Positions 1-40,384 of a DNA stretch of 64,000 bases are shown piece by piece. The notes beneath the pieces are model-generated. The model made no database searches, was not told the DNA's origin, and worked only from the letters and a program-made list of their open reading frames with translations. Source of the stretch: Myxococcota bacterium (lineage in GTDB: Bacteria > Myxococcota > XYA12-FULL-58-9 > JABJBS01); assembly GCA_036339465.1 (NCBI GenBank), contig JAYZAY010000067.1, positions 32,001 to 96,000 of the forward strand, read 5' to 3'. The translations under genes and the position numbers were made by a program. How positions within the stretch are numbered: the stretch's first letter is position 1; every line of letters begins with the position of its first letter.

Positions 1-190
1 GGCCAAAACCGCTCCTAGCATTAAAGACGGGATAATTAGTACATGCGTTCCCAAAACTAAACAAGTTCATCGCACCCTGGGCCAAGCCTTTCACCGCCCA
101 ATTAAACACGGCAAAGAAGATCTGATTGTTGCGATTCCCGCGATTTCGATGTCTATACACATAGGCTTCCGACAGAGAAACAACCAAAAC

Positions 191-3100
191 ATGTCCATCA
201 CAATTGAGAACGCTAAACCAAAAAAACGATATCGACGCATTTTCTATGCCGCCCTACTGCTCGAACTCCTCTTACAAAGCCTGCTCCATGGTGGTGTCGC
301 AATCGATGGACTTTATGACCAATTTCGCCTCCGATTAGCGGCAGAAGGAATTAGAGTCGGCGATGTCCAGTGGGATCTCACAAACTATTTGACCATTTCA
401 GATCTTGAATTCAAAAAAGACAACTCCAACCAGAACCTCCACACCATTATACCCAAAATGGAAATCCGCTGGACCCTCTCGAGTCTCTTAGCCGAGAATC
501 CCACCATAGAGAGTATCTCCCTGGATTCTCCCACCCTTCGCTTTATCCAAACAAACACCACTACTAACTTCAACCCCCCGACCACCGACGCACTTCATCC
601 CCAATCAGTGCTAGAAACATTGGCCCTTCCCCTTCAACAGTTACGTCAACTCAAAAAACTCCCAGTAACCTTTGCAATTAAGCAGCTCTCTCTTCGCAAT
701 CTGACCGTCGAAGCCAAAGCCAAAGCGGCTACTTTCACATTAAACTCCGTGGGGGTCGAATCATCTATTCGCATAACCGACCAAGAGAAATTGTTGGACC
801 TCCGAATCTTGCCCACAGGGGACGCCACTGAATCCAAAACCCCCACCATGAGTCTCAAAACCCGCGATGGTTTATTGACCATCAAAGCCCTGCCGCATCT
901 AATGTACCGACATAATATCGCCACCGAATTCGTCCAGATATCCCAAAAACTGGAGGGACAAGTAGCTTACCAAAATGGCGCCAATGTCATTTTCAAAACA
1001 AGCATTGATTCTACAATAAATTACAAAGACAAACTGTCTTTGAAAATCTACCCCAACTTTCAGCTTGGAAACGACTGGATAAATTTTGACGCAAAAGTCG
1101 AAACAGACATAACACCACTACAAATCAAAATTCGAAACCTAGAAATGAGTGCAAAGGCAAACTTAAATCCAGTCATCGAGACTTATCTTCCGAACGCTGG
1201 GCACAAAATGACCGGTCGCGCTCACCTCTCCGTTCAAGGCTCGGGGCACCTCTCACCACTTCTGAAGCCTAGGGCCATAAACCTTGATTTAGCGCTGAAG
1301 TCACCCCAAATCCAGATTGAAGATCCGGAGAAGACTGTACAAGTCAGCAACATTGATTTTGGGATCCACTTTAAAGAAAACCATCTTCAATCGAAACTCA
1401 TGGGCAACCTTGATCGCATCAAAACGCCCGATTTCGAAATCGGCGAAACACAATTTACGACCACCCTAAACCAACATTTTTCTGTTCTTCCCTCGAATAT
1501 CAAAGATTTCCACCCCAACGTAGAAACATCCCTAAGAATAAAACACATACGAACTCAAGACCTTCTCATTCAGAAACTCAATATCGCTCAAAGAGGTTTG
1601 CTTTGGCCCCAAGACACCACCGCCCCCTGGGTACTCACACATCCCCTCAACCATCACATCCAAGTATCCGCTGAAAAAATAGAGAATCCAAAAGCCACAA
1701 TCGGCCCCCTTTTCACCGAAACAAAAATAGAAGGCAAAAAAGGTGGCCAAAAAATCGACATTACTCTAAGCCATCCCCTCACTCATATCCGTACGAAATT
1801 CCTACAAGAGGACCCTCTCAATTTAACATCCGAGATGCGCGCGAGCATTCTCCCTGAGAAGATCTCGGTTACACTACAACTTCACGAACAAACCCTCGTG
1901 GTCAATTCTCGCCTGAATCTCGATATCGCCCACCGAAACTTCAAGCCACACACCATTGGCTCTATGAAGTTTGAATCAACCATGGATAACCTGAGCCTAG
2001 CCGCCTCACATTTTGTTCCCCCCGAAAATGGAATCATTCAAAGCGGCTCTTTAGCTATCCATATGCAACAAAAACATCCCCTAAAACTACAAGCCATCGA
2101 AGCATGGGTCGACAAATCCCCCCCCAATCAAACCACAGAAAAGATCCTTCACGGCACCTCCCTATTACGCGAACTCAGCCGATACTTTACCCTCAACCTT
2201 ACAAGCGACAACCTTGATATAGACCATCCACAAGGTAAAATCGAAGCTCTCACCTTTCGCACCTCCTTCGAAAACGCCACCCTCAAAACGGCGCTCAGCT
2301 TAACCGACATCGAAGTAAAAAAGGTAACCACGACCACCCACAAGCTCAACGCTCTAAGCCTACACTGTGACCTACGCCTCTCACCTTCCAACATTAAACC
2401 AAGTATCACTATCCAAATTGGGAATATAAAAGACCAAGCAAAAAAAGACGACCTCGGTTCTCTCGTGCTCCATTCCGGCTTCACATGGTTCGTCGGGCAA
2501 TTCCTAAACATAGACAGATTTCAACTCGAGCTTCCTGAAATCGAAGCGATGATATCCAGCAAAGGAAAAATTCTGAAGCCCCTGAAAAAGATAGAATCTC
2601 TCCAACATGGAAGGCAAATGGCTGTGCTCCCCATAGCCGATCTGGAATATTTCCTCAGTTACCGCCCTAGAGCATCCCTAAGCTATCTATCAGAACTCGA
2701 ACAATTCCGCGGAGCTCTTGAGCTTCAAGGTTCTCTATTCACCCAAGACCAAGACTTCTTCACAGAAGCCACACTCACCTTCTCTCACCTACATGCTTCG
2801 AGAACCGACATGGACCTAAAAAACCTCCATGGCACCCTTCCGGTTAAGCTCGCTTTTACCCTCGATGCAGCCCAGGGGGCTGTGCCCATCTTTGAATCTG
2901 AAAAAATGACATTATTCATCCCCAACCACACCAACAAGCAAACGAAAAGTCATATTTCCCCCAATAGTCTTTTCACTTCCAACCACCTAAACTCCCTCTC
3001 CGTTGACCACCTCAAGCTCGGCAAACTTGAAGCGAAAAATGGTTCTCTCGTGGCATTGCTCACTTCAAATGGCCTTCAGGTTCCCCAGGCCCGAGTCAGT

Positions 3101-3640
3101 CTACTCGGAGGCGATATCTGGGGGCATTTCAGTACAATCATTCAGTCCCCAGACCTCCTTGAAATCAATCTTGGGGTCCAACTCTCTGGCATTGACGCCA
3201 GTTATTTCAAAACCTTAAATCTCATTCCGGGACCAGAGTCTGCATTGAACGGCAATATGCAAATGAAACTAAGCTTGGGAAGCCACTCTAGAAATCTTGA
3301 GGCAGACTTCAACGTAACCCATATTGGCAGAAAAACCTTAGACCGCTTCTTACAAACCCTTGACCCCGAAAACAAAGACGAGAAAATCCAAAAGACCCGA
3401 AATTACCTGAGCTATCTCAGACTCAACTCCTTAAGCGCATGGATCCGCCACGAACAACTCAATATGGATTTGGATTATGATTCACTCATAGGCATCCCCA
3501 AAACGGCATTAAGCTTTAAACCAGTCCCAAACAAACTCTTGAGGCGCTACGATATTTCGGAGAATATACTCGACCAAGTTCTCCAACCAAAAGTCAATGC
3601 GTATATTGCACCACTATTCGGATGGAAAAATGAATCCTAA
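191..3640 (+). CDS. AsmA-like/YdbH-like bridge-type envelope protein (putative intermembrane lipid transport protein), ~1150 aa
   Basis: Basic N-terminus then a hydrophobic anchor (KKRYRRIFYAALLL..); AsmA/TamB-like N-terminal pattern (MEIRWTLSSLL..IESISLDSPTLRF); long alternating beta-strand character; YdbH-like C-terminal pattern (LHGTLPVKL..LSVDHLKLGKL..SLLGGDIWG). Start uncertain: ATG at 149 or 191, and the frame is open back to the window edge. Confidence 0.6.
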   Translation: MSITIENAKPKKRYRRIFYAALLLELLLQSLLHGGVAIDGLYDQFRLRLAAEGIRVGDVQWDLTNYLTISDLEFKKDNSNQNLHTIIPKMEIRWTLSSLLAENPTIESISLDSPTLRFIQTNTTTNFNPPTTDALHPQSVLETLALPLQQLRQLKKLPVTFAIKQLSLRNLTVEAKAKAATFTLNSVGVESSIRITDQEKLLDLRILPTGDATESKTPTMSLKTRDGLLTIKALPHLMYRHNIATEFVQISQKLEGQVAYQNGANVIFKTSIDSTINYKDKLSLKIYPNFQLGNDWINFDAKVETDITPLQIKIRNLEMSAKANLNPVIETYLPNAGHKMTGRAHLSVQGSGHLSPLLKPRAINLDLALKSPQIQIEDPEKTVQVSNIDFGIHFKENHLQSKLMGNLDRIKTPDFEIGETQFTTTLNQHFSVLPSNIKDFHPNVETSLRIKHIRTQDLLIQKLNIAQRGLLWPQDTTAPWVLTHPLNHHIQVSAEKIENPKATIGPLFTETKIEGKKGGQKIDITLSHPLTHIRTKFLQEDPLNLTSEMRASILPEKISVTLQLHEQTLVVNSRLNLDIAHRNFKPHTIGSMKFESTMDNLSLAASHFVPPENGIIQSGSLAIHMQQKHPLKLQAIEAWVDKSPPNQTTEKILHGTSLLRELSRYFTLNLTSDNLDIDHPQGKIEALTFRTSFENATLKTALSLTDIEVKKVTTTTHKLNALSLHCDLRLSPSNIKPSITIQIGNIKDQAKKDDLGSLVLHSGFTWFVGQFLNIDRFQLELPEIEAMISSKGKILKPLKKIESLQHGRQMAVLPIADLEYFLSYRPRASLSYLSELEQFRGALELQGSLFTQDQDFFTEATLTFSHLHASRTDMDLKNLHGTLPVKLAFTLDAAQGAVPIFESEKMTLFIPNHTNKQTKSHISPNSLFTSNHLNSLSVDHLKLGKLEAKNGSLVALLTSNGLQVPQARVSLLGGDIWGHFSTIIQSPDLLEINLGVQLSGIDASYFKTLNLIPGPESALNGNMQMKLSLGSHSRNLEADFNVTHIGRKTLDRFLQTLDPENKDEKIQKTRNYLSYLRLNSLSAWIRHEQLNMDLDYDSLIGIPKTALSFKPVPNKLLRRYDISENILDQVLQPKVNAYIAPLFGWKNES

Positions 3641-4217
3641 ATACACAATCCTAAGTCTTTTTCTACTCTCTTGCAGCTGTGTCACCATCCAAACAGTCAA
3701 CATTGGACAAAAAACATCTCTCGAGCGCCAACTTATGGGCGACTTTCAAAAACTCAATGAAGAAGAATATTCTGCCATCAGTGTTCGAAGCAAGATAGCC
3801 AAAAAAATGCGAAAGCAATTCGACACGAAATTCCGATTACTACGGGCCCGCCAGAGGCATCTATTTAACCTCGACGACCTAAATCGTTTCCTCCTTGAAG
3901 ACTGTTTAAGAGAGAAGCATGGCTGGCAGTTGGTCACCCATCACTGCGACCTCGCTGAAAAAGAGGCCGGTGCAAAAGAACTCATAGATAAACTCATTCG
4001 AGAAGAAAACACCGATCGAAACGAAATTTTTCTCTTTTTCACCCAGCGCTACAATCTAAACAGTCGCGTCGAGCTCGCCTCTCTAAAAGATGCACTCCAG
4101 AAACTCTACCTCCAGTCCTCTCCTGAGACAACGTGGTTCCAGCCCAAAGAAAACGGGGCCTGGAGACAAAGACAACAATCTCAAAAACACCCCAAACCGT
4201 TGGAAAACAAAACATGA
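3630..4217 (+). CDS. Predicted lipoprotein, DUF1318/YdbL-like
   Basis: ATG 3630 overlaps the upstream stop; lipoprotein signal MNPKYTILSLFLLSC/SC; YdbL-like motifs LREKHGWQL, LIREENTDRNEIF and C-terminal WFQPKENGAW. Confidence 0.6.
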   Translation: MNPKYTILSLFLLSCSCVTIQTVNIGQKTSLERQLMGDFQKLNEEEYSAISVRSKIAKKMRKQFDTKFRLLRARQRHLFNLDDLNRFLLEDCLREKHGWQLVTHHCDLAEKEAGAKELIDKLIREENTDRNEIFLFFTQRYNLNSRVELASLKDALQKLYLQSSPETTWFQPKENGAWRQRQQSQKHPKPLENKT

Positions 4218-7200
4218 AGTGCAACGGTTCTGCTCACTCTCTCTTGAGCATCATACTGGCCCTCTGCGCATTCACTGGATGCAAAGACCGATTGCGCCAC
4301 CCCATTCATTTAGCACCGCCACAAAAGGATGAAAGCATCCTAAAGCACCCCCAACCTCTCCTAGAAGAATTTGGGAATCAATTTCACCCAAACGCCCATC
4401 CCACCACCCAAGATATCGTCTTTGTTTCAGACCAAAGAGGTAACCAAGACATCTATTTCTATGAGGCCCAAAAACAAACCATATCACGCCTCACCCAATC
4501 GACCGCCGATGACTTCATGCCAAGTATAAGTCCCGACGGAAACCGAATCGCTTGGGTCAGTCGCTCTGAAGATGCCAAAGGCGACATTTGGGTCATGGAT
4601 ACCAATGGCAACAACCCCACTAAAATCACAAGTGCTTCCACCAGAGACGCCTCACCTAGTTGGCTGACCAACAACCTCCTAGTCTTCGAAACTCAAAAAG
4701 GCCTAAAATCAACCGATGACACCACCGTCATGCTTTATGACTTAGCAACCCTTAAAGCATCCATCCTAAGCAATAACAGTTTCCACCCCCAGGCACAGGC
4801 ACAATCCAAGCAGGCATTATTCCTCCAAAAAAAACCGGATACAAATCACCTAGAGCTGTGCCTCTATTCCCATACAAACAAGAGAAGACGCATTTTGGGA
4901 GAAGTCCCACAACACTCCACTTCCCCCTTTTTTTTCGAAACCTCTCCTGGATCTCCAATCGCCTATGTCGGCGCCACTGTCTTTAGTTCAGACACCAACA
5001 ACGATCACAAAGTGAACACCGATGATCTGCCATCCATTTATCGTTTCACACTAAAAGAAAACAAGCTCGGAATTCCCACATTAGGACACCCCGAACCCCT
5101 AACACTTCCAACCCAAGGACTCCGAAAAGTAACAATAAGAGACACACATCTCCTCTTTTCCGTTTTTAACGGCCAAAATCTCGACATCTACCAACTACCC
5201 ATCACGGGGATTAAGTCCCCTACTGCAACCTCAACCACCCTTCTAGAGCTTTATCATCAATCGTCCGATGTTCACATACGCACCTTTATTCTGAGAAATC
5301 TCATCATAGAGCGAACCACTCAACAAACAGATGCATACCGAGAACTCGCGTGGAGCCTAGCCCAACAAGGACTCTACCTTGCAGCCAAAGAGGAAATCCA
5401 GGCCGCAATTAAACAAGTCCCGGCAACTGACCAAGACTTATTAGAACTCGCAAAAATAGACCTTAGTCTAGAGCAAGAGAAGTCGATTTCTTCTAAGACC
5501 GATGAATCCAGTCAGCGCCAAAAAGAGCATAAGCGAATGACCTTGAGCAGAGCGATCCTCGCACGTAATCAAGATTCCCCAAGAGTCACTTGCGCTGCAA
5601 AACTGGTCATAGCGAGACTTTATCATCACCAAAAAATGTTTGGAGAAACATGGGACGAGCTTCACACCCTTAGAAAAGAGAGCAAATGCTCAGACTTGCA
5701 AAGGGCGCGGGCTACAGTCCATGCCCTCGATGTCTTATTCGAAATGGGCCAAGAGATCGCCAGGTCGACACTTCTAACTGAATTAGAAAAAACCACAGGA
5801 ACTGGAGTTGATAAAGCAATCCAAGGGGAATTCAAAAAATGGGTCGACCGTTTTCTAGACAGTCATTCTGTCTTAGAGCAACTTGATTTTCTAGCTGACA
5901 GTCTGAATCACTATTTTAAGAAAGGTGATTTGCGCGCTACCCTGCTCTATCGTCGGTCGCTTATTCTCGAGGACATCAACGACCACCCACGTGCACTAAA
6001 AGACCTGGATGAAATCATAAAAATAACCAACGACAGAGAGCTCTTTTCTCGGGCTGCTATGAGACGCTTGAAACTTCACGATACAGCCAATCAAGACAAG
6101 GACCAAACCAAGGAACTCCTACGAATAATTCGAGATCCACGTCTTCTATTGGAACAACGCGGAAAGATGCTTCAGGCCATCGACAAGATCATAGGCTCGA
6201 AAGCACTAAAACTCGAACGTATTGGAAAACCCCTTGAGGCAGTTCGAGTTTATCGCTCGCTTCTCAAGGCCAACCCCCAAGATTCGAAGACCCTTCGAAG
6301 AATTCTCACATTAAGCCATACACTTGGAAAAGGGCTTCAATACACCTGGAAATCCTTGTCGCCATCGACTCTGTCCCAAGGAGTCTACCACTATGGCCAA
6401 GCCCTCATGGACTCCTTTGGGAAATTACCAAAACTCGATGGCATCGAAAAGAATATTCGAATTGCACTCGAACTCAATCCTCGAAATTTTTCCGCGCGGC
6501 TACTGCTTGGCTGGGTCTACGAGAAACGGGAAACACAAAGCCCCAATAAAGGCTGGCTCGAAAAAGCAATCGATATATACGAAACACTTCTCGAGAATGT
6601 ATCTGAAGCCAAGGCGCCCTTTATCTACGCCGCCGTCCACCAAAATCTCGGCATGGCATTTCACAGACTTGGAAAACTAGATAGGGCCTTCAAGTTTTGG
6701 CTAAAGCGTTATCAAACAGAGATTCCCTTCGACGGCCCCGAACAAAATTTGGGTTTCCTATTTACGCTAGCTCAGACCTCTCTTTCCACCGGCGAGCTTG
6801 ACGTTGGCTTGGAAATATCAAGAACGATCTTTAGAAAATCATGGTCAATCAATTCAGCCTCCTACATTCATCGAGCCGCCCTACTACAAGCCTCTCTCTA
6901 TTATGTGCAAACAGACTATGAAGCCGCTCGTTATTGGTATCGCTTTCTAGGAAATATGCTGTCGGTAAATCCTCCAATCATTGTCCTACGGGGACTTGCA
7001 CTCACAGAACAAATGCTCGGAAATTACATGGAGTCAATGCAATATTGGCGTCAACTCTATGACCGAATCGCCGAACGAAAATCCGACAAGAAAGACCCCT
7101 TGGATTCTTTTTTCGTGGTCCTCCAACCAGCGAACCCTGCAAATATCACCGCCGCTCCCTTCGGGTTTCGATCCACACACGAAAAAGCGAATGCACTTGA

Positions 7201-10200
7201 GGGCTTGTTCAGGGTGAGCAATGCCACCGATAAACAGTTAAATATTCTCAAGGAACGTCAGGCCATACTCGAGAAGATGCTTAGGGATTCACCACTGCCC
7301 GCAACGTTTATTCCCGAATTGAGCCAGACACTCGAAGCCATCTACAAAACCCTAAAAACATCAAAACAGCATCTTTCCCTTAGAACGTCCGTCGAAAAAA
7401 CACTAAAAATGGCCATCAACCTACGGGTATTTGGAAGCATCATCCAATTAACACAACTTTATCTCGATGGTTTTGCTCTCGCCGCTCCGCCCATCATTCC
7501 TCCCTGGATCAGAGCCGGGCTCGATTTATTACCCAACGAGATTCCGACCATATACCAAGATGAGTTAAAGAGACTCAAAATAGAAATAGCAAGTTTAAAT
7601 TCTGCCACCACACTCGTTCTCGCTCATGCTGAAGCGAAGTCCCCCCTTGCAATCAAATCAGGTCTATTGAAAGCCGATCTCTCTGCGATCGATAAAACCC
7701 TCACTCTCGCCGGTACCGCGGATCTCTCGGAATTATGCTGGCAAACTCCAGAAACCGAAGAAACGTTAGAAACTTGGGGTAAAGCACTCGCTCAATACGA
7801 AGCAACCTATTTATGCTCAGAGCTAGAAGATAAGGGTTACCTAAATCAAGCCTGGTCTCGGTTTAGGATGAAGAGACATTCTACACTTGGTCCGAAGGCT
7901 ATGCTTTTGATGGAGGAGGTACTAGACCACGCCTTTGCCCATCAAGACGCCAACAGGATCTGGGAGGTCATTGAAAAGAGAACACTGATTGAACTTTACC
8001 CCCTCAAATTGGGAAAATCCTTTCCCATAAACCACCATGCCCTCGACAGCACCTTCCTAAAAGGTCTCGCCCAAGATGCGCCAAAACAAGAGCTACTCGA
8101 CCGACAAAAGCTCGCTGCCTACATTCCCAAGGGAAGCGCGCTGTTGCAATCTATCCAGATAAAAGGACTGCATTACTTTGTCATCTCCACTTCAAACGCC
8201 ATTGAGCAAATGAAATTATCAAATCCATCTTCCGTGGCTGAAAAAAGGATCTTCATCCAGAAACTTTCCAGATGGATTTCAGAGCAAAAAGTCAAACATC
8301 TCTTCTTTGGTGCCACACTCCACCAGCAACTTGGGCAGGAATTCATCCACAAAGCGCTTCGCAGTGCGACGCCCAAATTACGACAATTCAACCAGCTTTC
8401 CTTAACCCATCTGGCCTGGGCAGAGGCACTCTCTCCTTCTGGGATCCGCCGCCAAAAGAAAAATCCACCAAATCAGGAAAGCGCTAAAATCAATGCCGCG
8501 CTTGTTCAAGGCCTCTTGATGCGTAAGCATGGGTTCACTCCTCCCCACCTCGGGAAAACCCTGACGGACCCCAACCTTTATCAGCGTGGCTCTCCACTCA
8601 TTCTACTGGCCTCCCAACTCAGCGCCAGCTCCAGCAATGACCTCAACGCTAAAGCTCAGATGTTTTTGCATTGCATTCATCGGGGAATCCCCACCCTAGC
8701 GTTCCTCCCAACGCCCCCACAGACAATTGAGGGCATGGAACTAAACAGTGAACTCCTCAGAGAACTCGACAGGGTTGCCCTCGGTTCCCACAATACTGCA
8801 GACGGTATTTATTTCGGGCGCCCCTTAGCAGACAGCGCTACCCTATTCCGAGAAAGCCTAACCCGCTTTCTCGCTTCCTTTCGCCAGGCGGCGGTAGCGG
8901 CTCTTCCGCTCAAGAAAACCCGTGCAAAATTGGATGAGAGTACACTTGAACATGCGGAAATCCTTCTTCGCAAGGTTTTAATTACATTGGATTTTCTTTC
9001 CTACCACCCAATCTTTGCGGGACTTCGGAAAGATTTTGCCACAACCCAAGCATCACTCCCAAAAACAATCAGAAAGTGGGGCGCCATGCTCTTAAGCGGT
9101 GGAGAAGCTATCAGGCAGATGCTCATGGTCCCACTGAGCAAAGCCTTATCCCTAAATGGGAGACAGCGAGAAGCCATCGAGATTTTCGAGCGGATAGCGC
9201 AAAGTAGTCCGAAGAAATCATTGAGACTGCAGGCCCTGTTGAATCAGGCCAAGCGCCACATGGAGAGCCATTCCTACCCCCAAGCCGCCGAAACATTGAA
9301 GCGATGTATTAAAATAGGTAAGGGGCACGAATTGGATGCAGCTTACCCTTGCTACGTCACCCTGCCCAATGCGCTAAAGAAATCCGGCCGTATCAGTGAA
9401 GCGGGCCGGGTTTACAGTGATTTACTCAAGCTCTTAGGGACAAATGACCCTAGGCGTATTCGAATTGTCAGAGAATTTGCGCTTTTGGTAGAACAACCCC
9501 TAAACGCCTACGACAAGGCACTCAAACTCATTCGTGAGGCGATTTCAATGTCTGGAGAAATTGAAATCGATGGCGCTCTCAAAACGAACTTGCTCATAGA
9601 CGAGGCACGGCTTCTTCGAAAGATGGGCATGTTTCAATTGGCGCTCAAGCGGATCGAGCGCGCCAAAGTCCAGGCTCTGCATATGCCTATCGCACTCGCG
9701 AATGTCTGGTTGGAGCATGCCAGGATCCATTGGTACCAAGGTCGCTACGCCGACGCTTTGAAATCACAAAAGCAAGCCCTTCTTATCGCTGACCAATTGG
9801 GAAGTTCTTTTCTACAAATCCAGTGTTTTAGTTTAGAGGGACTCATTTTACTCAACCAAGGAGAGCTCGAAGCCGCGAAACAGCGGATCGAAGCTGCACT
9901 TCTATTGGCCAGAAAAACCAATCGCAAACAAGAAGAGGCCATTCAACTCAACAATCTTGGTACCGTATACCGAGCTCTCGGTGAACTTGAGGACTCAGTT
10001 GTCGCGTTTCGAAAAGCTGAAACCATTGATAGAAAATATCGAGACCATTATGGCCTCGCCTACGATCTCCGCAATTTGGCCACAACCAAAATAAAGCAGA
10101 ACAAACCTAGAGAGGCTAAAAAACTATTCCTTCAAGCCATCGAAATAAGCGAGAAGCTTAAGGACCCGTACAACCTGGCTCAATCGCTTTTGAGTCTGGC

Positions 10201-11656
10201 TTCACTTCCCAATCTAAAAAAAGGAAAAATACTCGCCTGCCTCAACAAAGCCACTCAATTATCAAGTAAATACGGGCTGCGTAGTATCCTATGGAAATCT
10301 CTCTATGGGTTAGCCCAACTCTACGAACAAAAGGAAGCCATTCCAAAAGCACGGCACTTGTACAACCTATCATCCAAGGTCGCTTCACAAACCCAGGAAC
10401 AATCCACAGCCGGGCAAATAGAATTAACACCTGAAGCCCTTCGAAAGTCCGCCATTGATTTTATGCTTAAACATGGTCACGTCGCGGATGCCCTCGACCT
10501 GGAGGACGGATTTCGCCAAACCAAAATAGACCTCACCCTAAAGGCGCTCGGCAAAGAAGTTCAACAGCAATCCCAAGGTGCTTGGGCGGCCCTCCATAAA
10601 CAGATTCAGCAAGCGATTTCCAAGGAAACCGAAAAGCCCTCTGAATCGACAAACCCTGGCCACTGGCTGACTCACCTACAAACGAACTTGGCTCCCACCT
10701 CAGCAATCTTCTATTTGATTGGTACGGAGCACTATTTACACCGCATCTTGGTGACCCGGGAAGACCTGACTGCGACGTCGCTCCCAATGGCACCAAACCA
10801 GAAACATATCCTTCGCGCTCTCGCCACCAACGTGCACTGGAATTTGCCTCCGAAAAAGTACCACAAGATTGCTTCGGATATGATTTTCAAAGATCTCCTA
10901 ACTCAGGTTGGAGACAAAACTCATTTGCACCTCGTTGTTGAGGGGTGGTGGCTCAACATTCCTTTTGCTGCGCTACACATAGCCCCGGAAAAACCGCTCA
11001 TCGAAGGCTTCGAGCTCTCTTTTTCCAGACGACTCTCAAAAAACCCACAGGCCATGTCCTCCAAAAGACATAGCCAAGAGAAGCAACCCAGAATTCTCGC
11101 CGCTGCCCCGTCCAAAGATCTACCTTACGCCAAACTGGAGGTTGAAAGCCTAGATAAGGCAGTTCGCCTCTATGACTCCACCACCCTAGCGCAGGAAATT
11201 CGGGCGGGCACCTACGACATCGTTCATCTAACTGGGCACAGTGATCTCAACACCAAAATTTCCCCAGAAACCGGTTTGTGGTTCACGACAGACAGCGAGC
11301 GAATTGATTATTTAAACCTAGGAGACTGGACCCAGGCTACCAGTCTTCCAAGTCTCGTTATATTAAACTCGTGTCATAGCGGTGAATTCTCGAAAAAAAG
11401 TCAAAATGCGTCACTTGCACAAGCCCTCCGAGCCATTGGGGTGCAATCTGTCATCGCGAATACCAACGGAGTGTCGGATTTTGATGCAGCCATTCTAATG
11501 AAACATTTTCACAGATACCTACCAACAGATGGCGCCCGCAAGGCGTTGCAAAAAGCAATGCTCCGACTAAGGCAGTTAGAGCCATCTGAATTGGCATGGG
11601 CGCAAACAAAGATTTTTCAGGGCCTTATCCCTAGCAAAATCATGCGCGACGAGTAA
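4214..11656 (+). CDS. Giant predicted lipoprotein: TolB-like (PD40) propeller + TPR arrays + C-terminal CHAT (caspase-like) protease, ~2480 aa
   Basis: ATGA overlap with the upstream stop (4214-4217); signal peptide II MKCNGSAHSLLSIILALCAFTG-C; PD40 repeats (PSISPDGNRIAWVS, GDIWVMDTNGNNPTKIT, SPSW); TPRs (AIQLNNLGTVYRALGELEDS, AYDLRNLA); CHAT motifs DIVHLTGHS (His 11237-11239) and LVILNSCHSG (Cys 11372-11374). Confidence 0.85.
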   Translation: MKCNGSAHSLLSIILALCAFTGCKDRLRHPIHLAPPQKDESILKHPQPLLEEFGNQFHPNAHPTTQDIVFVSDQRGNQDIYFYEAQKQTISRLTQSTADDFMPSISPDGNRIAWVSRSEDAKGDIWVMDTNGNNPTKITSASTRDASPSWLTNNLLVFETQKGLKSTDDTTVMLYDLATLKASILSNNSFHPQAQAQSKQALFLQKKPDTNHLELCLYSHTNKRRRILGEVPQHSTSPFFFETSPGSPIAYVGATVFSSDTNNDHKVNTDDLPSIYRFTLKENKLGIPTLGHPEPLTLPTQGLRKVTIRDTHLLFSVFNGQNLDIYQLPITGIKSPTATSTTLLELYHQSSDVHIRTFILRNLIIERTTQQTDAYRELAWSLAQQGLYLAAKEEIQAAIKQVPATDQDLLELAKIDLSLEQEKSISSKTDESSQRQKEHKRMTLSRAILARNQDSPRVTCAAKLVIARLYHHQKMFGETWDELHTLRKESKCSDLQRARATVHALDVLFEMGQEIARSTLLTELEKTTGTGVDKAIQGEFKKWVDRFLDSHSVLEQLDFLADSLNHYFKKGDLRATLLYRRSLILEDINDHPRALKDLDEIIKITNDRELFSRAAMRRLKLHDTANQDKDQTKELLRIIRDPRLLLEQRGKMLQAIDKIIGSKALKLERIGKPLEAVRVYRSLLKANPQDSKTLRRILTLSHTLGKGLQYTWKSLSPSTLSQGVYHYGQALMDSFGKLPKLDGIEKNIRIALELNPRNFSARLLLGWVYEKRETQSPNKGWLEKAIDIYETLLENVSEAKAPFIYAAVHQNLGMAFHRLGKLDRAFKFWLKRYQTEIPFDGPEQNLGFLFTLAQTSLSTGELDVGLEISRTIFRKSWSINSASYIHRAALLQASLYYVQTDYEAARYWYRFLGNMLSVNPPIIVLRGLALTEQMLGNYMESMQYWRQLYDRIAERKSDKKDPLDSFFVVLQPANPANITAAPFGFRSTHEKANALEGLFRVSNATDKQLNILKERQAILEKMLRDSPLPATFIPELSQTLEAIYKTLKTSKQHLSLRTSVEKTLKMAINLRVFGSIIQLTQLYLDGFALAAPPIIPPWIRAGLDLLPNEIPTIYQDELKRLKIEIASLNSATTLVLAHAEAKSPLAIKSGLLKADLSAIDKTLTLAGTADLSELCWQTPETEETLETWGKALAQYEATYLCSELEDKGYLNQAWSRFRMKRHSTLGPKAMLLMEEVLDHAFAHQDANRIWEVIEKRTLIELYPLKLGKSFPINHHALDSTFLKGLAQDAPKQELLDRQKLAAYIPKGSALLQSIQIKGLHYFVISTSNAIEQMKLSNPSSVAEKRIFIQKLSRWISEQKVKHLFFGATLHQQLGQEFIHKALRSATPKLRQFNQLSLTHLAWAEALSPSGIRRQKKNPPNQESAKINAALVQGLLMRKHGFTPPHLGKTLTDPNLYQRGSPLILLASQLSASSSNDLNAKAQMFLHCIHRGIPTLAFLPTPPQTIEGMELNSELLRELDRVALGSHNTADGIYFGRPLADSATLFRESLTRFLASFRQAAVAALPLKKTRAKLDESTLEHAEILLRKVLITLDFLSYHPIFAGLRKDFATTQASLPKTIRKWGAMLLSGGEAIRQMLMVPLSKALSLNGRQREAIEIFERIAQSSPKKSLRLQALLNQAKRHMESHSYPQAAETLKRCIKIGKGHELDAAYPCYVTLPNALKKSGRISEAGRVYSDLLKLLGTNDPRRIRIVREFALLVEQPLNAYDKALKLIREAISMSGEIEIDGALKTNLLIDEARLLRKMGMFQLALKRIERAKVQALHMPIALANVWLEHARIHWYQGRYADALKSQKQALLIADQLGSSFLQIQCFSLEGLILLNQGELEAAKQRIEAALLLARKTNRKQEEAIQLNNLGTVYRALGELEDSVVAFRKAETIDRKYRDHYGLAYDLRNLATTKIKQNKPREAKKLFLQAIEISEKLKDPYNLAQSLLSLASLPNLKKGKILACLNKATQLSSKYGLRSILWKSLYGLAQLYEQKEAIPKARHLYNLSSKVASQTQEQSTAGQIELTPEALRKSAIDFMLKHGHVADALDLEDGFRQTKIDLTLKALGKEVQQQSQGAWAALHKQIQQAISKETEKPSESTNPGHWLTHLQTNLAPTSAIFYLIGTEHYLHRILVTREDLTATSLPMAPNQKHILRALATNVHWNLPPKKYHKIASDMIFKDLLTQVGDKTHLHLVVEGWWLNIPFAALHIAPEKPLIEGFELSFSRRLSKNPQAMSSKRHSQEKQPRILAAAPSKDLPYAKLEVESLDKAVRLYDSTTLAQEIRAGTYDIVHLTGHSDLNTKISPETGLWFTTDSERIDYLNLGDWTQATSLPSLVILNSCHSGEFSKKSQNASLAQALRAIGVQSVIANTNGVSDFDAAILMKHFHRYLPTDGARKALQKAMLRLRQLEPSELAWAQTKIFQGLIPSKIMRDE

Positions 11657-14278: not shown

Positions 14279-15376
14279 GTGAATACTTTTGAACGATATT
14301 TCGCAAAACAAATCACAAGTCCTCTGCTAAGTGGGCTCGTTTTTTTCTTCATCATCATCCTATTTGGACAAATGGTTCAATTGAGTGATGCGGTAACTGG
14401 ACTCGGCCTGGATCCACAAAGTCTTTTGAATGCAATTCTATTTTCGGCTGCCCCATTGTTGGGAATTCTTCTGCCAATCTCAGCCCTCTTTGCCACCATG
14501 CTCGGGGTATCTAAGCTGGCTGCAGACGGTGAATTACTCGCTTATCAAGCCACAGGAGGCCAACCGAGAAAGCTCCTCAAAATCCCAATCATCTTCAGCC
14601 TCTTGTTGTGTTCAACCTCCTCACTCTTTCTCGTCTATGGGGAGCCCTGGGGGCTTAAAAGCCTGCAGACTTTAATGACCGAAAATGCAACAACCACCAT
14701 TGTCGAGGGCATTCACAGCAAAAAGATGATCGATTGGATTAAAGGCATCACATTTTATGCCGCCGACGAAGATGCAACGGGTTTGACGAGGGTCTTATTG
14801 GTTGAAAATCGCTCCGAAAAAGCCTCATATGTGGTCGCCGCCGAACATGCAGAAATCTCCCCCAGCCCCTTGGATAGCAGTGTGCTTTTCTCCCTTTCAA
14901 ATGGGCAAATTCTTCTCTCAGACCAGGACGACAATCCAAGAAACGTGATCCACTTCGAAAAACTCGATTACCGGCTAGGTGTAAAACAATTGGTGGGAAA
15001 TAGGCTCCATACAGTCACCCATGCCCAAATGATGACCCTGAATGAACTCTGGGAAAACATCCAAAATCCAGAAACAAATGTAAACACAAACGCACTCTAC
15101 ATTGTAACCTTGAATCGAAAATTCGCACTGCCAGTAGCGGCGGTTGTTTTTAGCTTACTTGCATTCGCCATCGGTTTCCGAACATCCAAAGCCCCTCAAG
15201 CTCAAGCGTATATTAACTGTATCTTGATTATCGCTGGCTATTATTACTTAGGTCGCGCTTTGGAACTCTCGGCAAGACGAGGCGATTTCCCCCCCTGGTT
15301 GGCCGCCTGGGTCCCCAACATCCTCGGACTCTTGTGGGGGTGGATACTTCTCTGGCGGCGAGGCTTACTTAGATGA
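14279..15376 (+). CDS. lptF: LPS export ABC transporter permease LptF
   Basis: YjgP/YjgQ family: LLPISALFATMLGVSKLAADGELLA, 3 TM + periplasmic domain + 3 TM, WLAAWVPNI. Confidence 0.85.
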   Translation: MNTFERYFAKQITSPLLSGLVFFFIIILFGQMVQLSDAVTGLGLDPQSLLNAILFSAAPLLGILLPISALFATMLGVSKLAADGELLAYQATGGQPRKLLKIPIIFSLLLCSTSSLFLVYGEPWGLKSLQTLMTENATTTIVEGIHSKKMIDWIKGITFYAADEDATGLTRVLLVENRSEKASYVVAAEHAEISPSPLDSSVLFSLSNGQILLSDQDDNPRNVIHFEKLDYRLGVKQLVGNRLHTVTHAQMMTLNELWENIQNPETNVNTNALYIVTLNRKFALPVAAVVFSLLAFAIGFRTSKAPQAQAYINCILIIAGYYYLGRALELSARRGDFPPWLAAWVPNILGLLWGWILLWRRGLLR

Positions 15377-16464
15377 GCATCATTCAACGTTACGTCAGTC
15401 AAAAATTTCTATTCCACTGGGTCATGCTCACCACAGGCCTGGGGCTCTTTGTGGGCGTCATAAGCCTGGTTGAAAACGCGGACCGACTCTCAGTTGAAAA
15501 CACAGCCGACCTCTCTAGCTCTCTAGCCTATTTTCTCAATGTCAGTGCCCAATTTGCATATTCTCTGATACCACTCTCAAGCTTTGTGGCTGCGGCATTG
15601 ACGGGGGCATTATTTGCTCGAAGTGGCGAAAACCTGGCGATTTTGGTCGGAGGGTATCGCCCCCAAACACTATTCAACTCTTATCTGAAAACTGCCATGT
15701 GCATCGCGGTCTTAACTGCCCTGCTCGGGGAATTTATCATGCCGACTGTACTACAAGACATTGACCGCAGTCCCTTCAAGCAGCTTGACAGAACCGTCCA
15801 GCAATACCGCAATTTACTGGAAGCCCGAAGCCACTGGTATCATTTTGAGAATAACATATTCCACCTCCCAAGCTATAATGAAGAGACAAAAGTATTCAAT
15901 AACCCTGTTATTTATCGACTCAAAGCGAAGGGGGGCTTAAAGGAAATTATTAAAGCGGAGAAACTCCTCCACCAAAACTCTTTCTGGCTCTTAACGGAAG
16001 TCAGTAGACTTCAAGTCTTTCCTGAAATGAAATGGAAGCTCAAAGAATTACCCCTAAAGCTCCACCTAGCCCCCCATGAGCTGCTAGACGTTGCGGGAAA
16101 CCCCCGACACCTCCGGAGTATGCCCCTCTCTCAAATCATCTCTCGACGTAAAAATGCTGGCTTCGACACGGGCTGGCATGAACAAACTCTCTACACGCGC
16201 TGGTTTCAACCCATCCTCGTCATCTTAATGCTCATTGTTGCCTATCCCTGGATCACGCGCCCCAATCGATTGCATTCCGTACTCTCGAGCTTGGCAGGAA
16301 TATGCGTCGTCACAGCTATTTGGTTTGGAGGCTCCTACGCCATACAAAGTATTCTCACAATCCTTAGGGTACCTGTCATCTGGCAAACAAGCGCATCCTC
16401 GTGGGCGGCCCTACTTCTGATAACAATGGGAAATCGGTGGCTGTATCGCCTCTCCAGAGCTTGA
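15373..16464 (+). CDS. lptG: LPS export ABC transporter permease LptG
   Basis: Second YjgP/YjgQ paralogue, ATGA-coupled to lptF; ARSGENLAI motif; same topology. Confidence 0.8.
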   Translation: MSIIQRYVSQKFLFHWVMLTTGLGLFVGVISLVENADRLSVENTADLSSSLAYFLNVSAQFAYSLIPLSSFVAAALTGALFARSGENLAILVGGYRPQTLFNSYLKTAMCIAVLTALLGEFIMPTVLQDIDRSPFKQLDRTVQQYRNLLEARSHWYHFENNIFHLPSYNEETKVFNNPVIYRLKAKGGLKEIIKAEKLLHQNSFWLLTEVSRLQVFPEMKWKLKELPLKLHLAPHELLDVAGNPRHLRSMPLSQIISRRKNAGFDTGWHEQTLYTRWFQPILVILMLIVAYPWITRPNRLHSVLSSLAGICVVTAIWFGGSYAIQSILTILRVPVIWQTSASSWAALLLITMGNRWLYRLSRA

Positions 16465-16479
16465 AGGGGCCTTGCCCCT
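16465..16479. terminator. Short GC hairpin between convergent lptG and PAP2 genes
   Basis: AGGGGC-CTT-GCCCCT inverted repeat; no clear U-tract. Confidence 0.35.
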
Positions 16480-16492
16480 CACTCAGCGATCT

Positions 16493-17161
16493 CTAAAGTG
16501 AAAAAGTGCTGCGTTCCCGACGACATGCCCAACCCAAGGGGAAACCAAAAAAGACACCGAACATCATACCCGCCGCGACATCACTCGGATGATGCCATCG
16601 TAAACTTACCCGCGACCAACTCACCCCCAAAGCTCCAATGAAAAGAGGCACCCCCACGAAAGGGGCTGCCACCAATACTGGTATCGCCGTCCCCATAGAA
16701 GTTGCGGCATGGGCAGAAGGAAAACCATGAAAGCGATAATCCAAACTAGGCCCATAGAGGCCGTCTTCCACATTCGCCAATGGACGGGCTCTCCCCAGAG
16801 TTGGCCTCAAGGTGTTTGCAGCCAATCCCGCCAAAGATCCCGCCAACAAACAAGCCAATCCCAGCCGAACCCAACAGATTCGCTTAAGGCCGTAACCCAG
16901 TCCGATTAAAGCGGATGCCAACCCCAAGGTTGCAATGGGGTAGTCCCCATAGAGAGAAAATTGCCGGGCCAACAAGACCACATTTCCAGAAATTGCCTCG
17001 GAAAGTCGAGCCAGCAAAACTTTGTCGAAGATGCCAAAAACCGCCACCACAAAAACGGCCATCGCCGGAAAACCCATCTGATAGATGCGATTCCCCTTAA
17101 ACCACTGAAATGACTGCCTAAGGAGCTCCCAAGTGAGGGACCTCAATACCTTAACGTTCAT
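16493..17161 (-). CDS. PAP2 family membrane phosphatase
   Basis: C1 RPTLGRARP, C2 FPSAH, C3 SRVSLRWHHPSDV; multiple TM segments. Start uncertain (ATG 17161 chosen; ORF extends to 17242). Confidence 0.85.
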   Translation of the reverse strand: MNVKVLRSLTWELLRQSFQWFKGNRIYQMGFPAMAVFVVAVFGIFDKVLLARLSEAISGNVVLLARQFSLYGDYPIATLGLASALIGLGYGLKRICWVRLGLACLLAGSLAGLAANTLRPTLGRARPLANVEDGLYGPSLDYRFHGFPSAHAATSMGTAIPVLVAAPFVGVPLFIGALGVSWSRVSLRWHHPSDVAAGMMFGVFFGFPLGWACRRERSTFSL

Positions 17162-17613
17162 GGGAGCCCACTCCCACCTTTCCCTGGAAACAGCAACTAT
17201 CGAAGCGGAAAAACCGTGATCCCCACCATTGGTGGTGGTCAAATATCCAACCAGTGGTTAAGGCTTCCAATAGAGTGGGAACTTCAATGGGGAAAACTTG
17301 AGTCCCCTCGAAACCCTCGAGACCAATGACAATCGAAGTCTGCCACATCCAGACAGTTCAAATTCTAAACTTACCTTGAATAACTCAGGATACGATAAGA
17401 TTTAGACTCGAAATACCCGGTGGAGAATCGAAGGGCTTCACGGCCCGTATCATCCCCATTGTTCAACCAAGTATCTACTCGGCATAATCCGCACGTTGCA
17501 ACTCAACCCACTCTCCTATCTGGAGCACTTTAAGCGTCCTAGAAGGAGGGCAAAAACCAAAACGCGGAAAATTGCTACATTCGTCAGAATCGGCGTATAA
17601 GTCGTGGGAAGCT

Positions 17614-18309
17614 ATGATTGAGTTTTTCCATGTCTACAAAGCCTATAAGGATGAACAGCCTGTTCTCGAAGACGTCACCTTGTCTATTAACAAGGGAGAC
17701 TTTGTTTTCATTTCCGGGCCATCGGGGGCCGGAAAGTCAACCCTCTTAAAGCTTATCTTTTATGCTGAAAAGGCATCTAGAGGTCAGCTTTACGTCAGCG
17801 GTTTTAATCTGAGTCAGCTCAAGCGCTCTTCAATTCCCTGCCTAAGAAGAAATATTGGGGTCGTCTTTCAGGACTTTCAATTACTTCCCCGACGAACTGT
17901 TCAAGACAACGTCGGGCTTACCCTGGAAATCTTGGGACTCGCTCGAAAAGAGAGACGCCGCCGAACATTCGAAATGCTTCAACAGGTAGGGCTTGGCCAC
18001 AGAATCAACCACTACCCACCGGAACTTTCTGGCGGAGAACAACAACGTGTCGCCCTAGCCAGGGCTATGATCAACGAACCACAAATCCTCATTGCCGACG
18101 AACCCACCGGAAACCTCGATTCCCAGAGAGCCAAAGAAACAATGGAGCTCCTCCGAAGCGCAAATATAAGAGGCACCACCGTACTTTGTGCCACCCACAA
18201 TGAAGCGCTGATGAAAACAATTCCAGCAAAACGAATCCAAATCGATAGAGGGCGTACCAAACTTTCCCACAATATGCCCTTGCGCTTCAACCGAATGAAG
18301 ACTGGCTAA
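17614..18309 (+). CDS. ftsE: Cell division ATP-binding protein FtsE
   Basis: GPSGAGKST, LRRNIGVVFQDF, LSGGEQQRV, ADEPTGNLD; followed by ftsX. Confidence 0.92.
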   Translation: MIEFFHVYKAYKDEQPVLEDVTLSINKGDFVFISGPSGAGKSTLLKLIFYAEKASRGQLYVSGFNLSQLKRSSIPCLRRNIGVVFQDFQLLPRRTVQDNVGLTLEILGLARKERRRRTFEMLQQVGLGHRINHYPPELSGGEQQRVALARAMINEPQILIADEPTGNLDSQRAKETMELLRSANIRGTTVLCATHNEALMKTIPAKRIQIDRGRTKLSHNMPLRFNRMKTG

Positions 18310-18311
18310 TC

Positions 18312-19226
18312 ATGATGATTGCCTCCACCGTACACTCCTTCCTAAACGGCGTTAAGTCCTTGAGGGCCTCCTGGGGTTTGGCTCTCCTAACCAGCACCAG
18401 CTTGGGTATCGCCGCATGCATGCTCGTCTGTGCCTATCAAGCCACCAATCAAATCCAAGCAACGCTTTCTGGATGGGCACAAGACATCCCGCTCTTAGTA
18501 GAACTCGCTCCAGAAACGACCCTCGGCAACAGGGATCTGGTTAGAGAAAAGATAGCATCTCTGCCAACGGTCACTCGGATCACTTACCATTCCCCGCAAG
18601 ACCTACTCACTGAACTCCGAGCTCACAGTACTCGATTAGAAGGTTTGGTCGAAAATGTCGATGCAACATCCATCCCTCCCCTGGTGGAGGTTTACACAAA
18701 CCTTCAACCTTCCGACCAAACCAACCACCAAAAGCTTAAAGAGAAACTCCATGAGATATCGTCGGTAGAATCCGTTGAAGACAGCTCAGAAACATGGAGA
18801 GAGCTCGAACAATTGTCTGAAGTGGTTTCCGGGGGGGGCATCCTTCTCTGTATCGCCCTAACAATCGCCCTGGGTTTCATGGTGTCCAACACCATACGTC
18901 TATCAATGATGAGTCGCCAAGATGAGATACATATCCAAAGCTTGGTCGGCGGCACTCCCCTTTTCATTGCCGCCCCTTATCTCTGGGAGGCCTTTATATG
19001 GAGCCTATTGGGCAGTGCAATTGCCTGCATGTTTCTTTTTGGCATAGAGTCTTTGCACATCGAGAATACCGCACTCATAAAAAATTATTTCTCTCAAGAA
19101 AAACCGTTTCAACTCCTCACAGTTTTCCACATCACCTTAGTTTTTATCTTTTGTCTCTCCCTTAGCTCCTGTGGGGCAGTAGCCACGATTGTTCGGGTGT
19201 TAAACCAAGAAATGGCACAGTCATGA
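18312..19226 (+). CDS. ftsX: Cell division permease FtsX
   Basis: VSNTIRLSMMSRQDEIHIQSLVGGT..FIAAPYLWE motif; 4-TM topology; position after ftsE. Confidence 0.88.
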   Translation: MMIASTVHSFLNGVKSLRASWGLALLTSTSLGIAACMLVCAYQATNQIQATLSGWAQDIPLLVELAPETTLGNRDLVREKIASLPTVTRITYHSPQDLLTELRAHSTRLEGLVENVDATSIPPLVEVYTNLQPSDQTNHQKLKEKLHEISSVESVEDSSETWRELEQLSEVVSGGGILLCIALTIALGFMVSNTIRLSMMSRQDEIHIQSLVGGTPLFIAAPYLWEAFIWSLLGSAIACMFLFGIESLHIENTALIKNYFSQEKPFQLLTVFHITLVFIFCLSLSSCGAVATIVRVLNQEMAQS

Positions 19227-20221
19227 CACTGCTTACAGTCTTGCTCATCGCTTGGCCCATCGCCACACCTGCCGAAAATATTTCTGACCTGTCGGAGGTT
19301 GAACGACGATTGGCCGAGCAATTAACACAAATTGAGTTCCTTGATAATAAGCTCACTTCCATCAACGAAAAACTCGCTTGGAATCTCGCCAACGACAGTA
19401 GGCTTCAGCTCGAACACAAAAATTTGCAGAAAAACTTGGGTAAACGCGCCATGGGGCTCTTTAAGGCTCCGAAACCCTCAGCACTTCTAATACTGGGCCA
19501 GAGCAAGTCATTCCATAAATTCCTGAGAACTCGTTACGTTCTGCATCACGCCAAGCGTCATGATCTAGAACAAGTTCGAGTGTTAAATCATAAGGGCGCC
19601 CAACTAAAAGAAGCCCGAAACTCCCAGGCAAAGTATCTGAAAAGAGTAAGAAGGATTCACACAAAACGCACCAGCCAAAGAAACCGTTTGGCACACATTC
19701 GTGAAATGAAACTAGAGAAAATGCGACAACTAGCCCCCGAGCAACGTGAAAAAGACTGGCAGACAAACGCCTCTAATCTCGCCGAAACATTTTCCTTCTT
19801 CCCCATATCCTCCCCCAGTGAACCGGACTCATCCCCAAAATACATCTATCCCCAACCCGTGGCCGGAACTGTTTCGTACAAAGTTGGGACTCCCCTTCTA
19901 TCCTCTCAAAACAAAAAGATAAAAAGCGACGGCACCTATTTTGACGTCCTATTTGGAAGTCCCGTTTATGCTATCTGCGCGGGTCAAGTCGAATACGCAA
20001 AGTGGCTTGATGGATACGGTTACACGGTGGTCGTGAAGTGTGGAAAACGGTACATCCTGTACGCTCATCTACGCAAACTCGATGTTTCTAACACAATGGT
20101 CATCAGCACGGGAGACAAAATCGGGGTTGTTGGAGAATCGTCTTCGCTACCCAACGGAGCATTTTACCTCGCAATTTGGTCAGAGAATCAATGGCTGCAA
20201 CCACACTTTGAAGAAAATTAA
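19223..20221 (+). CDS. envC: EnvC-like murein hydrolase activator (coiled coil + degenerate M23 domain)
   Basis: Signal peptide, coiled coil, C-terminal M23 fold (PVYAICAGQVEYAKWLDGYGYTVVV, YAHL) lacking the HxxxD and HxH zinc ligands; ftsEX context. Confidence 0.75.
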   Translation: MTLLTVLLIAWPIATPAENISDLSEVERRLAEQLTQIEFLDNKLTSINEKLAWNLANDSRLQLEHKNLQKNLGKRAMGLFKAPKPSALLILGQSKSFHKFLRTRYVLHHAKRHDLEQVRVLNHKGAQLKEARNSQAKYLKRVRRIHTKRTSQRNRLAHIREMKLEKMRQLAPEQREKDWQTNASNLAETFSFFPISSPSEPDSSPKYIYPQPVAGTVSYKVGTPLLSSQNKKIKSDGTYFDVLFGSPVYAICAGQVEYAKWLDGYGYTVVVKCGKRYILYAHLRKLDVSNTMVISTGDKIGVVGESSSLPNGAFYLAIWSENQWLQPHFEEN

Positions 20222-20226
20222 ACTTC

Positions 20227-24413: not shown

Positions 24414-24427
24414 ATTCTATTAATCTC

Positions 24428-26062: not shown

Positions 26063-26155
26063 TGCGTTTCCTCCAATTCAAATTGACGCGGAGCGAGGTA
26101 AAACTACTGCGAATACAAGATTAATCAAGAACTCTTTTAAATACAATGCGTTATA

Positions 26156-26206: not shown

Positions 26207-26223
26207 TCACACAGGAATTCAAT

Positions 26224-40369: not shown

Positions 40370-40384
40370 TCTCCCCTCATCTTA

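Follow-up and report, generated by a model that had tools for sequence, protein, structure and literature searches.

The stretch of DNA analyzed here (the window) consists of 64,000 nucleotides (nt), positions 32001–96000 of contig JAYZAY010000067.1, from a Myxococcota assembly of 4.17 Mb that is 92.8% complete. Three co-oriented open reading frames (ORFs) on the + strand, ORF1, ORF2 and ORF3, open the window (Table 1). They are predicted to encode an AsmA-like protein, a lipoprotein with a YdbL-fold domain and a very large lipoprotein that combines propeller repeats, TPRs and a CHAT domain. As a preliminary description made from the nucleotide sequence had noted, the coding regions overlap: the 11 nt at 3630–3640 run from the ORF2 ATG (3630–3632) to the ORF1 TAA (3638–3640), and the ATGA at 4214–4217 holds both the ORF3 ATG and the ORF2 TGA. 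The envelope-targeting N-termini that it ascribed to all three proteins are also present, as a hydrophobic helix preceded by basic residues in ORF1 and as lipoboxes in ORF2 (Cys17) and ORF3 (Cys23). ORF1 could also start at an in-frame ATG at 149. Upstream, a gap of 136 nt (55–190) separates ORF1 from a divergent gene encoding 281 amino acids (aa), and it is here that divergent promoters would be predicted to sit; in scans for promoters and terminators, neither exceeded shuffle expectation.

Table 1. Genes, domains and residues of the locus, numbered from the first nucleotide of the window
Feature	Position	Strand	Description
ORF1	191..3640	+	1149 aa; putative inner-membrane-anchored AsmA-like protein, beta-rich after the transmembrane helix
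ORF1 N-terminal transmembrane helix	245..343	+	residues 19–51, from DSSP of the AlphaFold2 model; KPKKRYRR precedes the helix
ORF2	3630..4217	+	195 aa; predicted lipoprotein (lipobox Cys17) with conserved N-terminal segment VNIGQKTSLERQLMG and C-terminal YdbL/DUF1318 domain
ORF2 YdbL-fold domain	3873..4175	+	residues 82–182
ORF3	4214..11656	+	2480 aa; predicted lipoprotein (Cys23); PD40 propeller repeats, extended helical/TPR stretches, CHAT domain at the C-terminus
ORF3 N-terminal propeller-plus-helical region	4283..7303	+	residues ~24–1030
ORF3 TPR array	9134..10432	+	residues ~1641–2073; TPR_12 (E 5.3e-24) and other TPR families
ORF3 CHAT caspase-like domain	10877..11584	+	residues 2222–2457; PF12770
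ORF3 predicted catalytic His2342 / Cys2387	11237–11239 / 11372–11374	+	dyad invariant in 19/19 long forms
Divergent 281-aa gene, 5′ end	1..54	-	gene (L002:17209-18054) continues upstream of the window

Both profile and fold comparisons support assignment of the C-terminal half of ORF2 to DUF1318/YdbL, as the preliminary description had it. The lipobox cysteine, in the motif LLSCSC, aligns with a conserved cysteine of 14 orthologues; the alignment had 16 rows, one of which was in the wrong frame and was later removed, leaving 15 sequences. DUF1318 (PF07027) was matched over the C-terminal half by 13 of the 16 rows (best 9.5e-9), and four orthologues pass the 27-bit cut-off with 32.3, 34.7, 33.8 and 27.3 bits. 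When the ORF2 family profile was aligned to E. coli YdbL with hhalign, the entire mature YdbL was covered (probability 93.4%, E 2.5e-7). The ORF2 model has a predicted local distance difference test score (pLDDT) above 90 over residues ~65–180, and its top Foldseek hit is the YdbL crystal structure 28oj (2026), with a probability of 1.00 and a template modeling (TM) score of 0.77. The structural aligner VIA, run unfiltered, also placed 28oj first, superposing the domain on 87/87 residues of the crystal structure (Z 11.2, root-mean-square deviation 2.4 Å); the next hit reached Z 6.8.

The resemblance extends to the site at which YdbL meets its partner. In the hhalign alignment, N-x-D129-R130 of ORF2 falls on N58-x-E60-R61 of YdbL, and R130 is invariant in 15/15 ORF2 sequences. 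Since E60 and R61 are among the YdbL contacts to the C-terminal helix of YnbE, as described in the available part of a preprint (bioRxiv 10.64898/2026.03.16.712125), ORF2 keeps the acidic-arginine pair of the YnbE-binding site. Unlike E. coli YdbL, which is soluble in the periplasm, ORF2 would carry its YdbL domain on a lipid anchor and has an extra conserved N-terminal segment: the first ~65 mature residues, which contain the strongly conserved VNIGQKTxLERQLMG followed by AARRRQLFNRDD, are covered by no family. A search of 1.84 billion cluster representatives with the ORF2 profile returned 739 relatives at E ≤ 0.001, of which 313 reach E ≤ 1e-10. Most of the best 150 have 170–230 residues and align with almost the whole profile, and the lipidated long form of YdbL is therefore a sizeable family.

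In our reading, ORF1 is AsmA-like and a single helix anchors it in the inner membrane. In a family alignment of 16 sequences (ORF1 and 15 full-length relatives from related genomes), the AsmA profile is matched by 11 members (best 3e-13), DUF748 likewise by 11/16 and YhdP by 6/16, always within the first ~190 residues, and two of six relatives scanned singly score above the 29.8-bit AsmA cut-off. In this the ORF1 orthologues resemble AsmA and YhdP, and the predicted architecture of ORF1, an N-terminal anchor followed by a long beta-rich periplasmic body, is also that of TamB. The best NCBIfam match of ORF1 itself is weak (LIC_12586 family, E 0.0045), and word-based homologue searches with ORF1 and ORF2 returned only near-identical copies (1 and 2 hits, respectively). 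Among language-model neighbours of ORF1, clusters labeled “AsmA family” score 0.98, and YdbH-family clusters make up 19/30 hits at 0.96.

The AlphaFold2 model of ORF1 (mean pLDDT 72.1, 16 sequences) places after the N-terminal helix ~1,100 residues of amphipathic β-strands (55% strand, 13% helix). Across the 46 model strands of at least 7 residues, hydrophobic and polar residues alternate with a z of 3.6 vs shuffles; conservation peaks at residues ~935–1149. The top solved matches in Foldseek were to the lipid-binding belt of ApoB100 (E 2.7e-7, probability 0.97–1.00), and LPD-3, a bridge-like lipid-transfer protein (E 1.1e-6, probability 0.77), and LptD were also found. VIA gave Z 11.4 for ApoB and Z 8.0 for LPD-3 over residues 53–320. 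The model is compatible with the β-groove fold that the preliminary description had anticipated, and its best matches are open lipid-binding sheets. Among the fold matches listed, there is no solved chain of TamB or of another AsmA-like protein from bacteria.

The third protein would also be exported. Its lipobox is AFTGC. A comparable L-x-x-C N-terminus can be read in 10 of 12 orthologues, and a lipobox thus in 11 of the 13 long ORF3 forms of the taxonomic order to which this bacterium belongs; in the remaining two, the frame opens ahead of the true start. Pfam families matched by ORF3 are PD40 repeats, many TPR families and CHAT (PF12770), the last with 96 bits vs a cut-off of 24 (E 3.5e-27). 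The PD40/TolB-type matches cover residues ~51–182, or 78–209 of a longer frame in which, with the same offset, the CHAT domain occupies 2249–2484. The best NCBIfam matches of the N-terminus are TolB models (E 8.2e-18). Unlike TolB itself, however, ORF3 scores 64.5 bits against a TIGR02800 cut-off of 343 and matches over ~120 residues (78–200 of the longer frame), so that ORF3 and TolB have repeats in common rather than family membership. The His2342-Cys2387 dyad is invariant in 13/13 orthologues of the order and in 6/6 long forms of families f12 and f13 (19/19). The dyad of the CHAT domain is therefore intact in the alignment, and protease activity is predicted. The C-terminal 831 residues matched only TPR proteins among solved chains, and in the same search DdvA, a TPR-CHAT protein discussed below, was not matched. 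No family is assigned to residues ~1000–1650. Within this region, the language-model neighbours of residues ~1297–1600 (window ~8100–9000) are TPR-CHAT clusters (0.92), and an internal hhalign comparison with the start of the C-terminal CHAT domain gave 53% over 31 columns. A second, degenerate CHAT domain was considered here and set aside as a weak lead, since the Pfam CHAT profile matched 0/11 orthologue segments.

Conservation of the three genes as a unit, which the preliminary description had made a point of its proposal, is borne out by related genomes. A search with the single ORF2 protein found relatives in 23 of 40 related genomes. Of 20 loci fetched from relatives, 17 have ORF1-ORF2-ORF3 in this order on one strand; one ends at a contig end after ORF2, and in two, from family f10, ORF1 and ORF2 converge and no ORF3 is nearby. 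Since the order is kept in 17/20 loci at amino-acid identities of only 20–45%, the arrangement is not chance. A scan of the genome collection with the ORF2 profile gave 13 loci.

We also scanned 301 sampled Myxococcota genomes with profiles of ORF1, ORF2 and the ORF3 N-terminus. As these genomes are not independent by kinship, the counts describe a pattern and are not a statistical test; one unpublished genome (G195) is counted in denominators only. ORF2-type genes occur at 106 loci in 103 genomes. Directly downstream and on the same strand, 88/106 of these loci have an ORF3-type gene, and 99/103 ORF2-bearing genomes have a strong match to the ORF3 N-terminus somewhere. Only matches with E ≤ 1e-45 were counted as strong, those of lower significance being generic PD40 proteins; the strong matches occupy 121 places in 117/301 genomes. 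ORF1-type genes (E ≤ 1e-12) are present in 130/301 genomes and lie within 4.6 kb of at least 74/106 ORF2 loci (among the matches listed, 60 share the strand of ORF2 and 14 converge with it), a lower bound, since 30 ORF1 matches are unlisted and weak ones fall below threshold. The 18 genomes with an ORF3-type gene and no ORF2 at threshold all belong to one family, in which ORF2 scores at threshold. Linkage persists at 20–30% protein identity across at least 10 families. The flanking genes are not retained outside the order and f13.

Elsewhere in this genome, within the limits of a 92.8% complete assembly, we found no YdbH-family gene (PF11739, E ≤ 1), no match to YnbE (PF13617) and no second DUF1318 gene. 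The trio is thus the genome's only system of its kind.

How might the three proteins work together? In E. coli, YdbH, YnbE and YdbL form an intermembrane bridge, according to the available part of the published account (PMC11126948). The explanation that we favor, and hold to be somewhat better than an even bet, is that the trio is a Myxococcota version of such a bridge, made of three proteins from what we propose is one translationally coupled operon. As in the E. coli order with which it was compared, an AsmA-like gene is directly followed by a DUF1318/YdbL-fold gene. AsmA-like proteins are thought to carry phospholipids. By analogy, ORF1 would be anchored in the inner membrane and extend a long amphipathic β-sheet groove across the periplasm, shielding lipids on their way. 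ORF2, probably a lipoprotein of the outer membrane, may cap or organize the far end of ORF1, for which it would use its YdbL pocket and conserved N-terminal segment. ORF3 could be an exported propeller-TPR scaffold that binds the ORF1-ORF2 end, and its CHAT domain might, once the TPRs or propeller sense a ligand, trim or remove parts of the bridge or envelope proteins close to it. There are precedents for such proteolytic control, as far as the available parts of the sources go: E. coli YdbL is under the control of the periplasmic protease DegP (bioRxiv 10.64898/2026.03.16.712125), and DdvA of Myxococcus xanthus is a periplasmic TPR-CHAT anti-sigma factor for which signal-induced cleavage has been proposed (PMC11506125).

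A more specific version, in which the ORF3 propeller-TPR region replaces YnbE as the partner of an AsmA-like conduit on the outer-membrane side, the lipidated YdbL serves as adaptor and, in lineages that have it, CHAT cuts ORF2 or the tip of ORF1 upon an envelope signal, is in our view distinctly unlikely. If true, such a gated bridge would connect and sever on demand, a new regulatory principle for AsmA-like transport.

Several observations weigh against the bridge interpretation. The window copy of ORF2 has no direct Pfam match, nor does that of ORF1 at E ≤ 0.1, and the assignment of both rests on orthologues, profiles and models instead of a direct match of their own. The preliminary description had called ORF1 a YdbH-like lipid bridge. 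Its AsmA-like character stands; YdbH-family membership is not supported, since PF11739 is matched by 0/16 family members and hhalign found no similarity between the ORF1 profile and E. coli YdbH (probability 0.2), leaving the language-model neighbours as the sole lead in that direction. The ORF1 fold matches have low TM-scores and come from a model with a mean pLDDT of 72 built on 16 sequences, and β-barrels reach Z 8–10 with this model, nearly equal to the lipid-binding sheets. Similarly, the likeness to ydbH-ynbE-ydbL that the preliminary description saw holds for the AsmA-like and YdbL parts and fails for YnbE, which the genome lacks. Nor does ORF2 supply it as a YnbE-YdbL fusion: the ITIxTVNIG and helix after its lipobox resemble YnbE by eye, but hhalign does not support homology. 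The ORF2 N-terminus aligned with E. coli YnbE and with an alignment of 13 enterobacterial YnbE sequences (75–100% identical to E. coli YnbE) at probabilities of 1.1 and 3.6, over the signal peptide only. The segment may still be a functional analogue of YnbE.

Gene arrangement is a further difficulty. When 20 further loci were scored with the ORF1, ORF2 and ORF3 profiles, family f13 was found to have the full trio. In f10 (5/5), ORF1 and ORF2 are convergent and ORF3 lies elsewhere, and in f12 (5/5), ORF2 and ORF3 adjoin, with ORF1 35–141 kb away on the same contig. Given these splits, the trio is not a fixed operon. All parts are still present in the genomes of both families; the unlinked ORF3 of f10 has 2,650–3,160 residues in 4/5 genomes and an open frame of 1,329 aa in the fifth (G070). 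In f17, f21, f27 and f33 (8/8 loci), ORF1 and ORF2 are followed by a third protein in open frames of ~1,160–1,510 residues, and the single f30 locus has ORF2 and a short third protein, with no ORF1 match. These short proteins (~1,150 residues) match the ORF3 profile only within positions 34–1036. CHAT is missing from the third protein in all five of these families, and proteolysis is therefore not essential to the core function. The one short form that was scanned has PD40 as its only Pfam match, with no CHAT, and carries a Sec-type signal with no lipobox.

An exact-sequence look-up found short-form trio proteins, which belong to families with large genomes, in Corallococcus and Myxococcus, including M. 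xanthus DK1622, where they are annotated as “hypothetical”, “DUF1318 domain-containing protein” or “lipoprotein”. Since the trio is retained with a third protein that has no CHAT domain, the propeller-TPR part would be the core partner and the protease a lineage-specific addition. Judged from these sequence comparisons, the conserved core is an AsmA-like protein, a lipidated YdbL and a propeller-TPR protein, and the extra TPRs and CHAT are a lineage-specific extension. The preliminary description had the bridge hard-wired to a protease; this is true of the present order and some others and breaks down in the five CHAT-less families and in the two where the trio is split.

Two further observations concern distribution. 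Three f10 genomes carry, besides the unlinked long form, a second ORF2-type gene and, directly after it, a short ORF3-type gene of ~1,150–1,390 aa (G070:C144:3792-5845, G098:C224:13209-15037 and G074:C353:5726-7818); in these genomes, long and short systems coexist as paralogues. A metagenome-assembled genome labeled Nitrospinae (G301) has all three genes on separate contigs: an ORF2-type lipoprotein gene (L042) between ketoacyl-synthase and formyltransferase genes and, on other contigs, an ORF1-type frame of 1,383 aa and an ORF3-type frame of 2,263 aa.

Could ORF3 instead be the principal actor? Like DdvA, as described in the available part of its source, ORF3 would be an extracytoplasmic TPR-CHAT protein with a canonical His-Cys dyad, and both come from the same phylum. 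It is possible, though we consider it unlikely, that ORF3 is a signaling or defense device of this kind, with ORF1 and ORF2 as its targets or platform instead of a lipid transporter that it serves. The propeller or TPRs would sense envelope damage or molecules of phages or predators, and CHAT would cleave a target to trigger a response. An intact dyad under long TPR arrays fits such a device, as do the DdvA precedent and the control of E. coli YdbL by DegP. However, DdvA is described as spanning the membrane once, with a zinc anti-sigma domain in the cytoplasm and an extracytoplasmic function sigma factor as its partner. ORF3 is a predicted lipoprotein, 2.5 times longer, with an N-terminal PD40 propeller and linkage to AsmA-like and YdbL-like genes. 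It has no transmembrane anti-sigma module, the conserved trio includes no sigma factor or regulator gene, and no sigma factor gene was found in the neighbourhood of the trio. The failure of the ORF3 C-terminus to match DdvA among solved chains also counts against this alternative. Moreover, the CHAT-less short form is equally linked, and the core association can therefore not be due to sensing through proteolysis.

A very unlikely alternative, in our estimation, makes ORF3 the cargo, with ORF1, together with ORF2, acting as a TamB-like periplasmic chaperone-conduit that helps to deliver or insert the ORF3 lipoprotein at or across the outer membrane. The AsmA-like family does include TamB, which is active in outer-membrane protein assembly, and a protein as large as ORF3, lipidated and tightly adjoined to ORF2 (88/106 loci), might need such a path. 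Yet a separate TamB-family gene is already present on another contig, the trio has no Omp85/TamA-type gene and no Omp85 partner lies nearby. Neither the TamB profile nor the TamB C-terminal domain is matched by any ORF1 family member (0/16). In addition, the short third protein, which has a Sec signal but lacks a lipobox, would be soluble in the periplasm and need no such path, yet is linked all the same. It is also conceivable, if extremely unlikely, that the genes are neighbours by descent only and have no joint function. Disruption of the trio in f10 and f12 would fit inherited order, as would the synteny of flanking genes within the order (the 281-aa gene in 12 loci, a TPR gene in 9), which implies slow rearrangement. 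Against this stand the overlapping stop and start codons, linkage at 20–30% identity in at least 10 families (the flanks are not kept outside the order and f13), co-occurrence in 99/103 genomes and the E. coli precedent of an AsmA-like gene beside a DUF1318 gene. We return to the intermembrane bridge as the preferred explanation. Compared with YdbH-YnbE-YdbL, it would be a bridge in which ORF1 is not detectably of the YdbH family, no YnbE gene accompanies it and a third, very large propeller-TPR(-CHAT) protein belongs to the unit.

The route by which phospholipids reach the outer membrane is still open, and the E. coli AsmA-like proteins YdbH, YhdP and TamB are the leading candidates. To our knowledge, only YdbH among these has defined helpers. 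We found no description of the trio in the literature, a search whose coverage did not extend to subscription journals, and the trio seems to be a so far undescribed form of the YdbH-YnbE-YdbL envelope system. What is new is the quantification of ORF2-ORF3 linkage across the phylum, the CHAT-less form in tractable myxobacteria, the split arrangements and the negative tests for YnbE and YdbH. A large phylum would thus pair AsmA-like and YdbL-fold proteins with a different and much larger third component, to which some lineages have added a caspase-like protease. Because M. xanthus and Corallococcus encode the CHAT-less form, the core association can be tested in a genetically tractable and non-pathogenic organism. 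The long-form lineages raise the question of which substrates a CHAT protease would have outside the cytoplasm.

The surroundings of the trio include other envelope genes. The divergent 281-aa gene encodes a protein that matches no family and is hydrophobic at its N-terminus. The gene adjoins ORF1 in 12 loci of the order and in f13 and not in the other families examined, and its product may be a fourth, order-specific component. Further upstream are a TPR gene, efp and a type IV pilus pilMNOPQ cluster (L002:3576-11611), in which pilM-pilN-pilO-pilP precede the gene of a secretin that has 1,720 residues and four AMIN-domain stretches. Downstream of the trio, an acyl-CoA dehydrogenase gene is followed at 14279–21348 (+) by lptF, lptG, a PAP2 phosphatase gene on the opposite strand, ftsE, ftsX and genes for an M23 peptidase and an S41 (CtpA-type) protease.

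Isocitrate lyase and malate synthase genes lie at 23133–27657 beside a divergent gene for a helix-turn-helix-M78-ScfR-type regulator. At 39251–43185 (-), a PrkA-type kinase gene adjoins a DUF444 gene, a pairing familiar from stress and sporulation loci. A 3,794-residue ORF at 50536–61920 (-), whose only Pfam matches are TPR families near its ends, encodes a second giant helical-repeat protein. Finally, GC skew on the + strand is negative in 31/32 of the 2-kb windows, reaching -0.29 in the region of ORF1, and AT skew is positive for the most part across positions 1–64000, a strong strand bias that spans genes of both orientations.

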